Part shown: positions 3,240 to 49,509 of the stretch, piece by piece | Numbering within the stretch: position 1 is the stretch's first letter | How the letters are laid out: each line of letters begins with the position of its first letter | Source of the DNA: Patescibacteria group bacterium | GTDB taxonomy: Bacteria; Patescibacteriota; Minisyncoccia; Phycocordibacterales; JBBTRF01 | Length of the DNA stretch: 64,000 nucleotides | Reading direction: 5' to 3' | NCBI GenBank assembly: GCA_038065315.1 | Contig: JBBTRF010000001.1 | Location: forward strand, 392,425 to 456,424 | Position numbers and translations under genes: made by a program | The notes under the pieces: generated by a model | The model's database searches: none | The model's input: only the letters and a program-made list of their open reading frames with translations | What the model was told of the DNA's origin: nothing

Positions 3240-3507
3240 AGCCGTTGATCAGGATTGAACTGATGACCTCGTCATTCGTTTACACCTCATCTTGCGAGAG
3301 GACTAGACTGTATCTTTCTCCGCTTCCGCATTCCTGCCAGAAGTGGAGACCCTTGTCAGTCGTTCGGGCGTCGAACTGTTCGGCGCCACGGTCTTGTCCA
3401 GTATTTGGATATTAACCGTTATTCGGGATTCGCGACGGAATTGCTTCCATCGTGGGCAGGGGTGACGACCCACCAATGACGTGCTCTACCAACTGAGCTA
3501 CAACGGC
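3240..3507 (-). tRNA. tRNA-Thr (anticodon GGU) interrupted by a ~195-nt group I intron in the anticodon loop (after position 36)
   Basis: 5' exon GCCGTTGTAGCTCAGTTGGTAGAGCACGTCATTGGT (3472-3507) and 3' exon AATGACGAGGTCATCAGTTCAATCCTGATCAACGGCT (3240-3276) reconstitute a canonical cloverleaf with loop TTGGTAA. The intervening 195 nt (3277-3471) ends in G, the upstream exon ends in U, and the intron contains P7/S-like AAGATACAGTCTAGTCC and R-like GAACGACTGACAAGG elements. Confidence 0.6.
3277..3471 (-). other. Putative group I intron within tRNA-Thr(GGU)
   Basis: See tRNA feature: exon U / intron-terminal G, GACTG...CAGTC P7-like pairing, size similar to the Azoarcus tRNA intron (~200 nt). 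Confidence 0.5.
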
Positions 3508-3567
3508 AACTGAGCTACCAAGGTAGAGTAATATATTTACCTTCTTTAATCAACTATCACTTTCACC

Positions 3568-5821: not shown

Positions 5822-5921
5822 AGTCATCATATTATATATTATTTTTATGATGCCGTTAAGAAGAATGCTTTTGAAACGAAAAACAGGCGCCATTCCGAGC
5901 GTCTGTTTTTCGTTTTCCTTG

Positions 5922-6225
5922 TTGCGGGGCCGCGAATTGCACGCGGGCCTCAAGGTTATGCTTACCACTTCGGCTTTCGCCGCACCGACTTGGCTTCGTG
6001 GTCTGGACTATACCTTCTTCCGAAAGATACTCTTGTCTCGTTACGGAAGCCTGCCATCTAGTCTCTACACCTTCCGAGATTTTGCTCGGCTTGGCTCGGT
6101 ATTGCCACCCCTCCCCAAAGTTGAGAAGACGAGGTTTCACCGAATTTGACAAGTTATCAATACCGATTACTCGATAGTGAGCCCTAAAAATTGAGCCTTG
6201 CGAGTTACTGCTTCTCTACCCCGCG
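5922..6225 (-). tRNA. Initiator tRNA-fMet (anticodon CAU) interrupted by a ~233-nt group I intron between U33 and C34
   Basis: 5' exon CGCGGGGTAGAGAAGCAGTAACTCGCAAGGCT (6194-6225) plus 3' exon CATAACCTTGAGGCCCGCGTGCAATTCGCGGCCCCGCAA (5922-5960) give a cloverleaf with the C1:A72 mismatch typical of initiators, loop CTCATAA and a CCGCG/CGCGG T-stem. The intron (5961-6193) ends in G after an exon U and contains GGCAATACCGAGCCAAGC...GAAGGTGTAGAGACTAGATGG, near-identical to the Azoarcus tRNA-Ile group I intron (IC3) core. Confidence 0.7.
5961..6193 (-). other. Group I intron (IC3, Azoarcus-like) in tRNA-fMet
   Basis: Core block similarity to the Azoarcus intron (GGCAA.GCCGAGCCAAGC ... GGUGUAGAGACUAGA); 5' splice after U, 3' terminal G. 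Confidence 0.65.
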
Positions 6226-7095: not shown

Positions 7096-8529
7096 CTAGG
7101 CGAGGAAATCTTTGGCGCAGTGGAAAAGTGTCGCGTCGGCTTTGTGCGGTGCCATGAGCTGGATGCCAAGTGGCAACTGCTTCTCCTCTTTCTCGACAAA
7201 GCCTGATGGAATCGAGATCGCTGGCACGCCCACGAGGTTAGCTGTGACGGTGAAAATGTCGGCTAGGTACATCTGTAGCGGGTCAGCCGACTTTTCGCCG
7301 ATTTTGAAAGCGGGTACAGGTGAAGTCGGCGTCAAAATAAAATCAACTTTTTTGAACGCTTCCGCAAAATCAACCCTGATCATATCGCGCACGAGATTGG
7401 CCTTCGCATAATACGCATCGTAGTAGCCGGAAGAGAGGATGTAGTTGCCCATCATGATGCGGCGACGTACCTCTTTGCCAAAGCCTTCCGTGCGAGTGCG
7501 AAGATAGTCAGCGAGCAGGTCGTTACCCTCTTTCAAAGCTCCGTACTTCATGCCATCGAAGCGTGAGAGGTTCGATGAGGCTTCGGCCGGCATGATCACG
7601 TAGTACACCGCAAGCGAATATTCAATATTTGGCAGTTCGATCTCGACGATCTCATATCCAAGCTTTTTGTATTGCGCAACCGCTGCCTCAAAATTCGCCA
7701 ACACCTCGGCGTCGATACCCTCCTTCATAAAATGTCGGGGAATCCCAATGCGTTTTTTCGCCGAAGAAACAGCGGTGCTTTTTATCCCATTGAACGCACT
7801 CTCAGGCAATGTCGTACTGTCATGCTCATCATGTCCTGCCATCGCATCAAAAAGGATTTGCGCATCGTCGGCATTTTTCGCGATAGTACCAATCTGATCG
7901 AGCGACGAACCCATCGCCATCAGACCATATCGAGAGATCGCACCGTAGGTCGGTTTGAAACCAACCACCCCGCAGAGGCTCGCCGGCTGGCGCACCGAAC
8001 CGCCGGTATCCGAACCCAAAGCGGCGAGCGCCCCGAACATCGCCACTGCCGCCGCTGAACCACCAGAAGAGCCGCCGGACACACGAGACTCATCGTGCGG
8101 ATTGTGCACCGGACCGTATGCCGAGTTTTCGTTGGAGCCGCCCATCGCGAATTCATCCATGTTGGTGCGGCCAATAAACACCACGCCTTCTTTTTTGAGA
8201 CGCGCGATTGCGGTCGCATCATACGGCGCGACATACCCCTCGAGAATCTTCGACGCTGCACCCGCACGTCGACCCTTGATCAAAATATTGTCCTTCACCG
8301 CGATCGGAATGCCGGTGAGCAAACTGCCCTTTCCTTCTTTGATCAGCACATCGGCCGCCTTGGCCTGATCGAGCACATCGCTGAATACTTCGAGGTACGC
8401 ATTGATTTTGGCGTTTTTCGCAGCGATTTCGTCGAGATACGCCTGCGCCAATTGCACAGCGGTAAAGTCACCTTTTACAAAAGCGTCGTGCGCACTGCGA
8501 ATCGTGATGGTTTTGAGATCGATCTTCAT
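7096..8529 (-). CDS. gatA: Glutamyl/aspartyl-tRNA amidotransferase subunit A
   Basis: 477 aa; amidase signature GGSSGGSAAAVA with the Ser-cisSer-Lys context; typical GatA length. Confidence 0.9.
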   Translation of the reverse strand: MKIDLKTITIRSAHDAFVKGDFTAVQLAQAYLDEIAAKNAKINAYLEVFSDVLDQAKAADVLIKEGKGSLLTGIPIAVKDNILIKGRRAGAASKILEGYVAPYDATAIARLKKEGVVFIGRTNMDEFAMGGSNENSAYGPVHNPHDESRVSGGSSGGSAAAVAMFGALAALGSDTGGSVRQPASLCGVVGFKPTYGAISRYGLMAMGSSLDQIGTIAKNADDAQILFDAMAGHDEHDSTTLPESAFNGIKSTAVSSAKKRIGIPRHFMKEGIDAEVLANFEAAVAQYKKLGYEIVEIELPNIEYSLAVYYVIMPAEASSNLSRFDGMKYGALKEGNDLLADYLRTRTEGFGKEVRRRIMMGNYILSSGYYDAYYAKANLVRDMIRVDFAEAFKKVDFILTPTSPVPAFKIGEKSADPLQMYLADIFTVTANLVGVPAISIPSGFVEKEEKQLPLGIQLMAPHKADATLFHCAKDFLA

Positions 8530-27136: not shown

Positions 27137-27228
27137 GGAGGGGTGTCAGAGCGGTCGAATGTACCTCTTTGCTAAAGAGGCAGGGTCTAAACAACCCTCG
27201 GGGGTTCGAATCCCCCCCCTTCCGCACC
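27137..27228 (+). tRNA. tRNA-Ser (anticodon GCU), class II
   Basis: Acceptor GGAGGGG/CCCTTCC, anticodon arm CCTCT-TTGCTAA-AGAGG, long variable arm CAGGGTCTAAACAACCCTCG, T-arm GGGGG-TTCGAAT-CCCCC. Confidence 0.75.
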
Positions 27229-27405: not shown

Positions 27406-27492
27406 GGAAAGATGGATGAGTGGTTTAAATCAACGGTTTACTAAACCGTCGTCCCGTTACACGGACCGTGGGTTCGAATCCCACTCTTTCCG
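27406..27492 (+). tRNA. Class II (Ser-type) tRNA with apparent anticodon ACU
   Basis: GGAAAGA acceptor, D GAT/ATC, anticodon arm ACGGT-TTACTAA-ACCGT (perfect 5-bp stem forces loop TTACTAA), long variable arm, T-arm GTGGG-TTCGAAT-CCCAC. Confidence 0.5.
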
Positions 27493-27557
27493 CAGTAAGA
27501 AAAATGTATCGGGAGACCCGAGTGCCCAAAAAGGTCATTTTAAGCTAAAATTAAAGC

Positions 27558-37097: not shown

Positions 37098-37110
37098 AAT
37101 GATGCTGATG

Positions 37111-37183
37111 TGCGCCCGGAGGGAGTCGAACCCCCGGCCAGGTGTGTATAAGACACCTGCTCTACCAACTGAGCTACGGGCGC
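37111..37183 (-). tRNA. tRNA-Ile (anticodon UAU)
   Basis: Reverse complement GCGCCCGTAGCTCAGTTGGTAGAGCAGGTGTCTTATACACACCTGGCCGGGGGTTCGACTCCCTCCGGGCGCA; anticodon arm GGTGT-CTTATAC-ACACC gives TAT. Confidence 0.8.
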
Positions 37184-41822: not shown

Positions 41823-42209
41823 GGGGATGCCAGGCATCGACGGAAGAATATCTCTTGAATGTGCGAAGGAGAGCTTCAGTAACTCTTAAAAAGGCTGAAA
41901 ATTCTAAGTGCAAAACTTGGATCTGTAAAGTCTCCGTACTTCGGTGCGGCTGACCTTGCATTCGCTTACGCTAAAGCCTAAGCGACGCCAGCCGGATGGT
42001 TTCCACACCGTTCGGTCCTGACGCTATATTTGTGGAATAGGATCAGCGGAGTCCCGCCGCCGATTCGAGATCATGGGAATAGTGCGTACCGCTTTTCGGT
42101 CGTTTCATAACGGCACGCGCGAATTGCCGCAAGGCATAGAAGCGCCCTACCCTTCGTAGACCCATTCACTAGACTCTTCTGCACGGGGGTTCAATTCCTC
42201 CCATCTCCA
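41823..42209 (+). ncRNA. ssrA: tmRNA (ssrA)
   Basis: 5' GGGGATGCCAGGCATCGACGG... and 3' tRNA-like end GGGGGTTCAATTCCTCCCATCTCCA (T-arm plus acceptor pairing with the 5' GGGGATG); located directly after smpB. Confidence 0.8.
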
Positions 42210-43770
42210 CATCCATAGAGTTTGAAGCCACAAAGTCCTCAAAAAGCCTTACGGCTGCTGGTATTTTATCGGTTCGATAACCGGTGTTTTTGTCGTAATG
42301 CAATTTCTCATTGAAAATGAAGAAGAACGTCTCCTGTTTTTCTCGCGCATCCAAGGAAGTCCATATCTTGTATGGGCTTTTAAGCAGTGTGGATACTTTA
42401 TCCAGAGCGGTTCGATAAGGAATTGTCAGATCGATCTCGCCTACTGAACCCGACCCGAGATTCTCAAGCTCCGTTGAAAGAATTTCAATTTGATCCTCAT
42501 AAGCTCTCTTAGCGGCTTCTACACCTGTCTTCGACGAAGAAATTGCTAGTTTTCCAATGTCCTCCTCTATCGACTTTTTCTTGGTGTTTCGCTCAGCTTC
42601 CTCTTTCTTGAGTTTACCGACTTCGTCTTGCCACACCCCATCAAACACAACCTTTAATAATGCGTCGACTTCTTTCTTAAGAACGCACTTTTTAAGAAGA
42701 ATCTTGAAACGATCTTCAACATCCTTCTTTTTTAGAGATTTTCTGTAAAAGGAACAATCTTTCTTTTGACAAAGATAGTAAGGATGCTTCTTGTTTCGCC
42801 CTTTCGACCAACCGGAAGTAAGATGACTTCCGCATTCATTACACAAAAGAAGACCCCTTAGCGGAAAGTCGTCTCTTACGTCCAATCGCACGCGAATACC
42901 CGAATCTTCCTTGCGCAATCTTTTCTGAATTAGTTCAAAGGTCTCGATTGATATTATCCCCTCGTGTTTACCGAGCCTTCTTTCAACTCCCCGCTTCGGA
43001 TATTCAATATAGCCTGCATAAAACGGATCCTTCATTACAGCACTGATACGGCTTATATACTTATCAGGATTACTACCTTTCCAAAATCCCTTTTTAAGCA
43101 AAAACCGACATACATCGACCCTACTCCTCAAGAAGCCTTTAGCGAACTGCTCGCGTGCCGGCTTGAGCAGTTCCAAGCCGTCTTTTGTGGGCAGAGACAA
43201 CATTCCGTGCGCATGATCCTTAGTCATTTTATAGCCCCTCTTGCTACCATAGGCCCAGTAACCCAATTCCAATCTCGCTCGTTGCTTTTGAGTAACCTGC
43301 CTGTGATTTTGGTGCCTCTCAAGTTCTGCTTGTCCCGCCATAATTAATTCTGAGAAGCGTCCCTCTGGACTTTCATCAAAATTATAGTTCAAACACCTTA
43401 ATACGATATTACGTACCTTGAAAGCAGCTCTTAATTTCAAATGAAATTCCACGTCGCGAGCAAAACGCTTGAGATCGTCGAACACAACAACATATCTCTT
43501 GTCGGGATTTGCGTCTATGTAAGCAAGGAGCTTTCGCATAGCCGGACGATTCATAAAATCACCTCCGCCTGTATAACTATCGGGAAAAGTCTTTGTGTGT
43601 GGAATACCTAATGTCGATAGTTCTTTTACACATCTCCCCTCCTGACTTACTAAGCCTGTCCCCTCAATCTCCTGTCTCTTACTTGAGACGCGTGCGTAAA
43701 CGAGACCCTCCCTGTCCTCGTAAACACTTTTTTGTTGTTGTATCTTTTTGTTTTTTAACATTTTTTTCAA
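42169..43770 (-). CDS. Large serine recombinase (integrase)
   Basis: 533 aa; N-terminal resolvase catalytic domain (YARVSSKRQ ... VVFDDLKRFARD), recombinase domain and Cys-rich zinc ribbon (CNECGSHL...YYLC); C-terminus overlaps the tmRNA 3' end. Confidence 0.85.
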   Translation of the reverse strand: MKKMLKNKKIQQQKSVYEDREGLVYARVSSKRQEIEGTGLVSQEGRCVKELSTLGIPHTKTFPDSYTGGGDFMNRPAMRKLLAYIDANPDKRYVVVFDDLKRFARDVEFHLKLRAAFKVRNIVLRCLNYNFDESPEGRFSELIMAGQAELERHQNHRQVTQKQRARLELGYWAYGSKRGYKMTKDHAHGMLSLPTKDGLELLKPAREQFAKGFLRSRVDVCRFLLKKGFWKGSNPDKYISRISAVMKDPFYAGYIEYPKRGVERRLGKHEGIISIETFELIQKRLRKEDSGIRVRLDVRDDFPLRGLLLCNECGSHLTSGWSKGRNKKHPYYLCQKKDCSFYRKSLKKKDVEDRFKILLKKCVLKKEVDALLKVVFDGVWQDEVGKLKKEEAERNTKKKSIEEDIGKLAISSSKTGVEAAKRAYEDQIEILSTELENLGSGSVGEIDLTIPYRTALDKVSTLLKSPYKIWTSLDAREKQETFFFIFNEKLHYDKNTGYRTDKIPAAVRLFEDFVASNSMDVEMGGIEPPCRRV

Positions 43771-44731: not shown

Positions 44732-44972
44732 CAGTAGAAAGAAAGTGATTATATGCTAGTATATAAGCACAATTGAATTGTTTTGAGTAGCCTAAACCAC
44801 ACAAGCAATTGTTGGCATGGCGAAAAGCCCAGTAACGACCAAAAAACCCATCATATGGGGTTGTCGTTACTGGCCGTACAGGGAAACTTGTATGGAGGGC
44901 GTAAGCTCTCACCCATGTGGTGGGCTTTTTGCTACCCAACACTTGGTTAGAAGTTAGACCAGTAACATCTCA

Positions 44973-47471: not shown

Positions 47472-48136
47472 TAAAGACCATAGCGCTTGATCAGAGCGAC
47501 AAAATCCTTGTAAGTACTAGAGTGGCGAATGGCTTTTTCTTCGTTAAAATGGCTTCCTACAGATTGTGAGATGTCTTTTGCACCAACCGTCTTATTTAGG
47601 TCAACAAAAGAATTAAATTTCTCTTTACAGTGACAACTCGATGTAGTACTAGACAACAGTCTATTCAGCTCACTATCATGTTGATCTTTAAAATCTGGAA
47701 AGTTCGATTCTAATCCAGCAAAATACCAACTTTCAATCTCCACCTCAACTGGACAAATAAGGACCTCCTTGAATGATACGGAGGAACTGGCCACGGCCTC
47801 CTCAATTAACTTTTTCCTGACGCCACTCTGACTCTGGTCAATATCAAAAAGGACAACTAGATAGAGTTCAAAATCATTACCAAAAAGATAGGTGTGATTC
47901 TTGATGAAAAGAGAAGCAATTTGATATGTATCGGGCTTCTTTAATCTTTCCTTTCCAGCAACCTTACTACCAAGCTGGGGCGGGAAAGGAAAAAACCAAA
48001 AGACTTCATCCTTACTGTATATCGAAGAATTGCCATCCTTAAGGAGCTTTGATTCAAAAGACCTTCTTTCCAACAATCTCGGCAAAAAGTATCTTTCACT
48101 ATCCCCCTCTCCGATTAGCAAGCAGACCTTTTTCAT
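47465..48136 (-). CDS. Toprim-like (DUF4276/RloB-like) protein, partner of the AAA ATPase
   Basis: Start MKKVCLLIGEGDSERYF (conserved Glu), later LVVLFDIDQ (DxD) - Toprim catalytic signature; ATG overlaps the ATPase stop as ATGA (48133-48136). Confidence 0.55.
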   Translation of the reverse strand: MKKVCLLIGEGDSERYFLPRLLERRSFESKLLKDGNSSIYSKDEVFWFFPFPPQLGSKVAGKERLKKPDTYQIASLFIKNHTYLFGNDFELYLVVLFDIDQSQSGVRKKLIEEAVASSSVSFKEVLICPVEVEIESWYFAGLESNFPDFKDQHDSELNRLLSSTTSSCHCKEKFNSFVDLNKTVGAKDISQSVGSHFNEEKAIRHSSTYKDFVALIKRYGLYY

Positions 48137-49509
48137 ACTTCTTTTACTGGAAAAATTCCTTCGATTGTCCCCTGGCAAAATAATTCCGAATTTTTCTTAT
48201 CGGAAATGTACTTCTGCTCCTTCGGTGACAAATTTTCGATGATTGTCTTGTAATTATAAATATTACATCTATTTGCACCCTCTACCACAACGTCTCCGGC
48301 AATAGAAGCCGCGTCCTTTATATAGAATATCTCCTCGGTAGAAAAACCATCCAAAAAATAAGGGGAGTGTGTTGTTATGAAGATTTGAACCCTTCTCGAC
48401 AATGCTCTTAAAACCTCAATAAACTCTATGAGAATAGTCGGATGAACGATCGAATCAGTCTCGTCCAGGAGAAGGACGTGAGGTAATTGATAGCTCCTTT
48501 CCAAGGATCTCAGATTAATCCAGTTAAGTAAGGTAATAAAAAACACCAAAACGGATGTTCCGTTGGAGATTGTCCATATACCATCAGGACCGTTTGGCGA
48601 CGAGACAGACAAAGACCCCTTTGAATTAATCGACACTCCTCGAACTATTCCCTTGGTGTAAAGGTTCAGATCATTAGCAAATTTTTCTTTTATTATTTTA
48701 TTTTTTTCTATATCGCTTATCAAGAAAATAAACTCAGAGTTTTCAAGGCTGGTTTTGTTAGAAGGAACACCTCCATCCTTGAGTCGTCTCAAAGCTTCCT
48801 GATAAATCTGCTCATTCCCTTTGTCCGTTACATATTTATGAAGTGACAAAGCGGTCGTTATGTTACCCATATCGACACTAAGAAACTTCGGTCTAAACTG
48901 GGAAACAACGCTGTTTTGTAAATGTTCAAATATGGCAAAATAATTGTCGCCCTGCGGGTTTTTTATCGGATTCGACTGGATGATATTAGTATCACCTATG
49001 TTTTCTGTCTTCGAAAAATTCTTTTCGTAAACAAGGGTATCCTTCATCGTTACTGCACCTTTTTCAAAAAGAGAGTTATCTTTTGCAAAGGCTGACCATT
49101 TTATCTCACGATCCCTATTTACGTATTGCTTACCAGTAAAAAAGAGTTTGTGTAAGGTCGAGAAGCTATTTTTATCTAAAACTTTTTCGAATATCATCGC
49201 CTCGGTCTCGACACAAAAAAAATCAGTCTGTTCGTCCACCTGATTTCCGCCAACAAAACAAGTTCTTGCACTCTTATTCTCTATTGAGGTCTTCAACGAA
49301 GTAGTTCGAAGCCCTTGACCGATAGTAACATTATTGCCGCCAAACTCTTGAGTGTAGTCAGTTTTAATTTTCAGTGCAGAACTAATTGCCAACAGAAAAT
49401 TGGATTTACCACTTGAATTTCTGCCCGTAAAAACATTAAGATCGCCGAAGGAGATATCGGCCTTACTAATATTCCTAAAGTTCTTAATCTCAATATTTCT
49501 AATTTTCAT
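48133..49509 (-). CDS. AAA family ATPase (AAA_15/AAA_21, OLD/ABC-like) of a two-gene defense-type module
   Basis: 458 aa; Walker A VFTGRNSSGKSNFLLAI at N-terminus, Walker B/D-loop LLLDETDSIVHP and H-loop ITTHSPYF at C-terminus, long coiled middle. Confidence 0.75.
   Translation of the reverse strand: MKIRNIEIKNFRNISKADISFGDLNVFTGRNSSGKSNFLLAISSALKIKTDYTQEFGGNNVTIGQGLRTTSLKTSIENKSARTCFVGGNQVDEQTDFFCVETEAMIFEKVLDKNSFSTLHKLFFTGKQYVNRDREIKWSAFAKDNSLFEKGAVTMKDTLVYEKNFSKTENIGDTNIIQSNPIKNPQGDNYFAIFEHLQNSVVSQFRPKFLSVDMGNITTALSLHKYVTDKGNEQIYQEALRRLKDGGVPSNKTSLENSEFIFLISDIEKNKIIKEKFANDLNLYTKGIVRGVSINSKGSLSVSSPNGPDGIWTISNGTSVLVFFITLLNWINLRSLERSYQLPHVLLLDETDSIVHPTILIEFIEVLRALSRRVQIFITTHSPYFLDGFSTEEIFYIKDAASIAGDVVVEGANRCNIYNYKTIIENLSPKEQKYISDKKNSELFCQGTIEGIFPVKEV

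Follow-up and report, generated by a model that had tools for sequence, protein, structure and literature searches.

The window, by which we mean the whole 64,000-nucleotide stretch of Patescibacteria DNA analyzed here, carries on its minus strand a tRNA-Thr(GGU) gene that is split in the anticodon loop by a 195-nt group I intron. An insert at 3277-3471 of a tRNA-Thr(GGU) had been claimed in the initial annotation, and ARAGORN run with introns allowed gave identical boundaries on the minus strand [tRNA-Thr(ggt) at c[3239,3507], with a 195-nt intron at 36-37]. CCA is not encoded in the gene (3240-3507), which consists of the following parts:

3240-3507, minus strand: tRNA-Thr(GGU) gene with intron, pre-tRNA of 268 nt (ARAGORN intron mode; cloverleaf covariation across 55 species)
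3472-3507, minus strand: 5' exon GCCGTTGTAGCTCAGTTGGTAGAGCACGTCATTGGT, tRNA positions 1-36, with the anticodon G34 G35 U36 at its end (ARAGORN intron mode)
3277-3471, minus strand: group I intron, 195 nt, running from GGGTCG... to ...GTAAACG (fold, covariation, family HMM)
3240-3276, minus strand: 3' exon AATGACGAGGTCATCAGTTCAATCCTGATCAACGGCT, tRNA positions 37-73 (A37 A38 ... discriminator U73) (ARAGORN intron mode)

The arms listed at the outset (acceptor GCCGTTG/CAACGGC, D arm GCTC/GAGC, T arm ATCAG/CTGAT) are all present, and the anticodon stem is CGTCA/TGACG. Read on the minus strand, the 5' exon ends in U36 and the insert ends in G, again as first described; U36, which is U-1 of the 5' splice site, is invariant in the 55-sequence alignment presented below. 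Removal of 3277-3471 restores an exact 7-nt anticodon loop, UUGGUAA, and there is therefore no target-site duplication. The joined exons align end to end, over positions 1-72 and through the junction, with phage tRNA genes that have no interruption and are annotated as tRNA-Thr; with the spliced tRNA-Thr as query, E. coli genomes gave one weak tRNA-Thr match.

The gene is not called by default ARAGORN, nor by the Rfam tRNA or RF00028 models at their gathering scores, so that a standard scan misses this isoacceptor, as had been predicted. No intron-free tRNA-Thr(GGU) was found within the 64-kb window, where the only other Thr tRNA is tRNA-Thr(CGU) at 1972-2047. A consensus scan upstream of the split gene found no sigma-70-like promoter.

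Directly upstream of the gene lies a 17-nt tandem near-copy (15/17) of tRNA positions 2-18 (3507-3523 compared with 3490-3506), which reads on the minus strand as CCTTGGTAGCTCAGTTG followed by CCGTTGTAGCTCAGTTG. A probe search found upstream copies of tRNA fragments in 5 of 88 loci including the window, with an equal count in the downstream control. In that search, four loci described below (L076, L097, L110 and L145) carry another degenerate 5' tRNA fragment, CCGNTGTAGCTGTTTT, 36-74 nt upstream, and one more (L132) has a similar tandem fragment, judged by eye.

The insert folds into a complete group I core

Taken by itself, the insert has an MFE fold of group I type, comprising P2, P4, P5, P6, P7 around P8, and P9 (z=-2.9 relative to shuffles). 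The structure assembled from this fold and from the alignment of relatives comprises the elements below, given in the order of the transcript:

3469-3474, minus strand: P1 5' strand, exon G34 G35 U36 plus intron G1-G3 (pairs with 3455-3460)
3455-3460, minus strand: P1 3' strand, the internal guide CCUGCC, with the G at 3457 opposite U36 (covariation, RNAalifold)
3431-3454, minus strand: P2 hairpin with a GCAA (GNRA) tetraloop at 3441-3444 (MFE; 8/10 pairs with compensatory changes)
3425-3427, minus strand: P3 5' strand CCC, half of the P3/P7 pseudoknot (pairs with 3350-3352)
3388-3419, minus strand: P4 (ACGGUU/GACCGU) around P5 (3397-3409, UCCA/UGGA) (MFE, RNAalifold)
3367-3387, minus strand: P6 hairpin (MFE, RNAalifold; compensatory changes GC to AU and GC to CG)
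3357-3366, minus strand: J6/7 and P7 5' strand, CGAAC-GACUG, the R element (P7 pairs with 3306-3310)
3350-3352, minus strand: P3 3' strand GGG (alignment)
3317-3349, minus strand: P8 hairpin (MFE, RNAalifold; basal pairs covary, with double changes in 20-25 sequences)
3300-3316, minus strand: J8/7, P7 3' strand (3306-3310) and J7/9, the S element AAGAUACAGUCUAGUCC (17-mer identical in viral introns)
3285-3301, minus strand: P9 hairpin with a GCAA (GNRA) tetraloop at 3292-3295 (MFE, covariation, RNAalifold)
3277, minus strand: ωG, the last intron base, with the 3' splice site between 3277 and 3276 (invariant alignment column)

The core helices follow one another in the order P3-P4-P5-P5'-P4'-P6-P6'-P7-P3'-P8-P8'-P7'-P9, with the P3/P7 pseudoknot. 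The initial annotation had made its reading depend on such a core, and a complete one could be built, with comparative data in support. The R-like GAACGACTGACAAGG and S-like AAGATACAGTCTAGTCC (3316-3300) that it had picked out were both located in the insert, and the GACTG/CAGTC pairing proposed between them is P7 of the MFE fold, around P8. Within P7, G3361-C3306 may be the guanosine-binding pair, to judge from its positional equivalence to the conserved G-C in the GACU/AGUC core.

Positions 3472 and 3471 border the 5' splice site, where the U36·G wobble of P1 is kept in 54 of 55 sequences; beside it stand two exon G-C pairs that never change and three intron pairs that covary. P3 comprises just 3 bp, because RNAalifold gives the next base (3349) to P8. 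A fourth P3 pair (i44/i123) was considered and rejected: it is unpaired in 41 of 53 sequences, and RNAalifold pairs i123 with 155 in P8, with strong covariation. P7.1/P7.2 was not seen between P3' and P8 of the window intron, and a possible P10 pairing amounts to 1-2 bp at most. The 195-nt intron contains no ORF of endonuclease size; at this length it is too small for a homing endonuclease or a transposase.

The split gene recurs in other Patescibacteria

We scanned 185,579 species-representative genomes with the pattern GACTG-N(25-55)-AAGATACAGTCTAGTCC, which gave rise to 90 loci, nearly all in Patescibacteria MAGs; since the homologues were found through an exact 22-base core pattern, divergent relatives are under-sampled and the 90 hits do not measure the spread of the family within the phylum. 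ARAGORN placed 81 of the 90 inside split tRNAs. The loci where it assigned the intron to tRNA-Pro(GGG) or to tRNA-Arg(GCG/ACG/UCG) turned out, when inspected, to be tRNA-Thr(GGU) with miscalled boundaries, and the nine loci that it left uncalled, most of them cut by the locus ends, are also tRNA-Thr(GGU). After correction of the Pro and Arg miscalls, all 90 loci are tRNA-Thr(GGU) split at 36/37, and in this sample the intron occurs in no other gene.

Complete introns were available from 86 of the 90 loci and from the window. These 87 sequences are all unique and range from 176 to 266 nt, with a median of 194. Every one of them follows U36, ends in G directly before A37 A38, is bracketed by a perfectly complementary anticodon stem and carries the GCC guide motif near its 5' end. 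An HMM built from the introns of 54 other species matches the window at 3470-3277 (E=1.2e-42) and gives no further match in the 64 kb. Judged from these sequence comparisons, the window intron is a member of a Patescibacteria tRNA-Thr(GGU) 36/37 family.

Structured inserts of 60-80 nt occur in peripheral helices of a few relatives, in the P9 region of L080 and L130 and in the P6 region of L124; the resulting introns, 257-266 nt long, are still far below the size of an endonuclease gene. Thr-intron contigs were also found in MAGs labelled Gammaproteobacteria or Azotimanducaceae (L081, L092, L099), one of which (L092) bears Asp- and fMet-type split tRNAs as well. These are likely mis-binned CPR contigs rather than cases of horizontal transfer.

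We aligned 55 pre-tRNAs, those of the window and of 54 species (alignment A1). In the proposed structure 95.2% of the cells are paired, a share that falls to 35-42% if the 3' partners are shifted by 1-3 columns. Compensatory (two-sided) changes occur in 38 of the 68 pairs, and none of 500 shuffles reached any of the observed measures. RNAalifold, blind to the proposed structure, arrived at the cloverleaf, at P1 with its U36·G, and at P2 and P4-P9, and counted 39 pairs as covarying.

The acceptor, anticodon and T stems are 99.7-100% paired (the anticodon stem 100%), with many compensatory changes, indicating that the exons are under tRNA selection. Within the intron, many compensatory changes fall in P2, P5 (where 4/4 pairs covary), P6, P8, P9 and the intron half of P1. 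Variation in P3 is sparse, confined to a few sequences and including UA and UG variants; forms seen among relatives are CCU/AGG, CUC/GAG and UCC/GGA. P7 shows no variation at all, and P4 none beyond a single one-sided change in the last of its pairs; both being invariant, and P7 being set by the search pattern, neither adds covariation evidence. A GNRA loop occupies L2 in 54 of 55 sequences and L9 in every one of the 29 with a short P9; the other type has a longer, AU-rich P9. With the arrangement recurring in 90 other species, every intron unique and the helices covarying, the split of this gene is not a product of chance.

The family escapes RF00028 and shares core elements with viral introns

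A search of the Thr intron with RF00028, put forward in the initial annotation as a check, gave no match even at E<=10 on either 221 or 801 bases, and the same holds for all other Rfam families; at the gathering score, RF00028 matched none of 11 relatives. A match to this model is an operational test of detection and lies outside the features that define group I introns. The miss is documented for the Thr family (Nakagawa et al., 2026) and so does not refute the group I reading.

The exact 17-mer S element AAGATACAGTCTAGTCC is present in 58 IMG/VR contigs (L004-L061), many of them giant-virus MAGs. Of the 61 viral sites for which 90 nt upstream of the 17-mer are available, 60 contain an AACGAC[TC]G R element there, and the R element AACGACUG accompanies the 17-mer J8/7-P7 element in introns of giant viruses and phages. 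RF00028 matches four of the six viral introns that were tested, at 65-70 bits, over the 17-mer site. Many of the viral introns resemble the Thr intron in their P9 hairpin, whose loop is of GNRA type, and in the ...AACG terminus after it; they differ from it in being longer and, judged by their flanks, apparently within protein-coding genes. With ARAGORN in intron mode, no viral locus gave a split tRNA. Some viral contigs carry two 17-mer introns. Through the shared 17-mer, the tRNA-Thr family of CPR is linked to an intron lineage rich in viruses.

A second split tRNA and the surrounding genome

The window contains another split tRNA gene, tRNA-fMet(CAU) (5921-6225, minus strand), interrupted after U33 by a 233-nt group I intron at 5961-6193. 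Default tRNA scans miss this gene too; ARAGORN in intron mode calls it as tRNA-Met(cat) and places a 233-nt intron behind position 33, and RF00028 scores 51.9 bits at 5983-6203 (gathering score 50). The two introns reside in the same genome 2.5 kb apart, both in the anticodon loop, after a U and with a terminal G, whereas the fMet intron differs in being RF00028-positive, in its site (33/34) and in showing no significant sequence similarity to the Thr intron. Paralogy of the two had been raised as a question. A global alignment gave z=1.6 relative to shuffles and the Thr-family HMM misses the fMet intron, so that they are not recent or close paralogues.

An 8-kb locus of another genome (L066, MAG JBAXTI010000001.1) is syntenic with the window at 82-94% identity (94% for the pre-tRNA-Thr). 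The two split tRNAs are paired there as well, with fMet at the equal relative position. A 477-aa amidase (GatA-like) encoded at 7096-8529 of the window is residue-identical on Hainich groundwater contigs from the 0.1 µm filter fraction, where its neighbors include GatC, an NAD-dependent ligase (LigA), a prepilin peptidase and N-methyl (type IV) pilins. Taken with the Patescibacteria affiliation of nearly all carriers of the intron, these matches indicate that the window stems from a Patescibacteria (CPR) bacterium.

The window holds many tRNAs, a tmRNA and a release factor, which had raised the possibility of a large phage; a comparison with the phage collection returned only tRNA-sized matches, and, given the gene neighborhood on the Hainich contigs, this origin was rejected. 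Among the tRNAs called by ARAGORN are a tRNA-Ser with anticodon ACU (27406-27493), beside tRNA-Ser(GCU) at 27137-27225, and a tRNA-Ile with anticodon UAU (37110-37183); both anticodons are unusual in bacteria. The 3' end of the tmRNA (41823-42212, 88.6 bits) is overlapped by an ORF for a 533-aa large serine recombinase (42169-43770, minus strand). The next ~8 kb are low in GC (39-44%, compared with ~52%) and hold a LOOT RNA (44789-44910, 85 bits), a tRNA-Arg(UCU) and an AAA_15/AAA_21 ATPase (48133-49509). The segment 41823-50000 looks like a genomic island integrated at ssrA.

Relation to described tRNA introns

The tRNA-Thr(GGU) 36/37 intron family of Patescibacteria has already been described. 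Nakagawa et al., 2026 (mSystems, PMC13011429), who searched 95 complete genomes of the phylum for tRNA introns, tabulate three tRNA-Thr(GGU) 36/37 introns, and likewise fMet 33/34 introns (their Table 1). The Thr(GGU) introns are missed by RF00028 and found by the gpI_bact_tRNA model of tFind, and ARAGORN in intron mode finds them with occasional Arg(GCG) miscalls (Nakagawa et al., 2026). The window intron agrees with these in tRNA, anticodon, site, phylum, RF00028 miss and ARAGORN behavior. What differs is the material at hand: three published examples with neither structure nor covariation, compared with 90 species and covariation-backed helices here. The name 'divergent group I introns' is credited there to Castelle et al., 2018 (Nat Rev Microbiol).

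In the published intron phylogeny the Thr introns form long branches in the IA clade, beside other Patescibacteria tRNA introns, and subgroup typing places no Patescibacteria tRNA intron in IC (Nakagawa et al., 2026). Among these neighbors, the Asn and Asp introns share with the Thr family the phylum, the anticodon loop, a mostly ORF-less make-up and the IA clade, and Asp introns co-occur with Thr introns in three of our loci (L063, L068, L092). They depart from it in lying at 35/36, in being detectable by RF00028 and in having been shown to self-splice in vitro, the Asn and Asp 35/36 introns being the only ones assayed in that paper.

The initial annotation had likened the insert to the Azoarcus tRNA-Ile intron. 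The likeness holds for the 36/37 position; it probably does not extend to the subgroup, given the published typing. Williams, 2020 (bioRxiv 10.1101/2020.01.27.920355) sets out the tFind approach and the classical cases at this position, Ile2.5Ug and Arg.5Ug, and 36/37 is also the site of the tRNA-Arg intron in Nakagawa et al., 2026. The IC3 introns of Azoarcus tRNA-Ile(CAU) and of Agrobacterium and cyanobacterial tRNA-Arg(CCU) resemble the Thr intron in insertion at 36/37 after U, in a length of ~200 nt, in GNRA-capped P2 and P9 and in the lack of an ORF. They differ in sequence: the 17-mer of the Thr S element is held in common with the viral introns instead.

Discussion

We conclude with high confidence that the locus is a functional Patescibacteria tRNA-Thr(GGU) gene with a compact, ORF-less group I intron, of an RF00028-negative family, between U36 and A37. 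The group I reading at 36/37 of tRNA-Thr(GGU), first made from the window alone, is borne out by the core, the U·G pair, ωG and the covariation of 55 sequences.

The course of splicing proposed here is taken from standard group I chemistry and the conserved landmarks of the family. The pre-tRNA would be transcribed as a single RNA, in which the intron would fold into P1-P9, with CCUGCC pairing with G34-G35-U36 and the first intron bases so that the U36·G wobble comes to lie at the 5' splice site. The first attack, after U36, would be made by an exogenous guanosine in the P7 site, whereupon ωG (3277) would take the guanosine site and the 3'-OH of U36 would attack after ωG, ligating U36 to A37. 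The anticodon loop UUGGUAA would exist only after splicing, and modification of A37 and use of the tRNA would follow. By this analogy the intron is probably catalytic and independent of protein. Because the anticodon stem covaries across the intron, it can help to hold the exons together, as in the Anabaena pre-tRNA intron, where the stem assists in this (Zaug et al., 1993, as cited in Nakagawa et al., 2026).

We regard it as very unlikely that the insert is instead a group I-derived intron lacking autonomous catalysis, which would be removed with the aid of a host protein cofactor or through another RNA-processing route. Dependence on proteins is well known among mitochondrial group I introns (CYT-18, CBP2), and a minimal core of 195 nt with a 3-bp P3, divergent enough to evade RF00028, would suit such a dependence. 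Against this, the U·G pair, ωG, J6/7, P7 and J8/7 are strictly conserved in 87 unique sequences, the GNRA loops suited to tertiary docking are conserved, and the Azoarcus intron, at roughly 200 nt, is fully autonomous. The splicing assays of Nakagawa et al., 2026 cover only the Asn and Asp introns, but these related Patescibacteria introns do self-splice in vitro.

A dead tRNA gene broken by an unrelated insertion (an IS remnant or a decayed mobile element) and yielding no mature tRNA, an alternative named beforehand, would account for the silence of standard scanners on the tRNA and of RF00028 on the insert, and the 17-nt near-copy directly upstream hints at local rearrangement, but we consider it negligible, because the split gene is found in 90 species with cloverleaf pairing kept through many compensatory changes, the insert covaries helix by helix, 195 nt leave no space for a transposase, and no IS remnant, target-site duplication or pseudogene sign was found in a gene whose exons covary.

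For the functional split tRNA-Thr(GGU) gene that we favor, a further proposal is that the Thr intron is vertically inherited, endonuclease-free and fixed across broad Patescibacteria rather than a mobile parasite, perhaps serving as a splicing checkpoint or depending on a host factor. We think this proposal unlikely to be correct as a whole. If it were true, a checkpoint on tRNA-Thr maturation might sense guanosine nucleotides or Mg2+, the host-factor alternative being tied to the 3-bp P3; any such regulatory role is conjectural.

The value of the finding lies in annotation (a missing isoacceptor and a gap in Rfam, whose group I model does not cover the Thr intron family) rather than in new biology, since the family was known for the same tRNA, site, phylum and evasion of scanners, and on its own it opens no new biological question. 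Its additions to the published record are modest: the occurrence of the family in at least 90 species-level genomes, there exclusively at 36/37 of tRNA-Thr(GGU), and a P1-P9 structure backed by covariation, which could serve as the seed of a covariance model for the family. For the organism, the consequence is that without intron-aware tRNA finding the genome seems to lack tRNA-Thr(GGU), an apparent loss that affects completeness estimates and codon-usage inference for CPR genomes.
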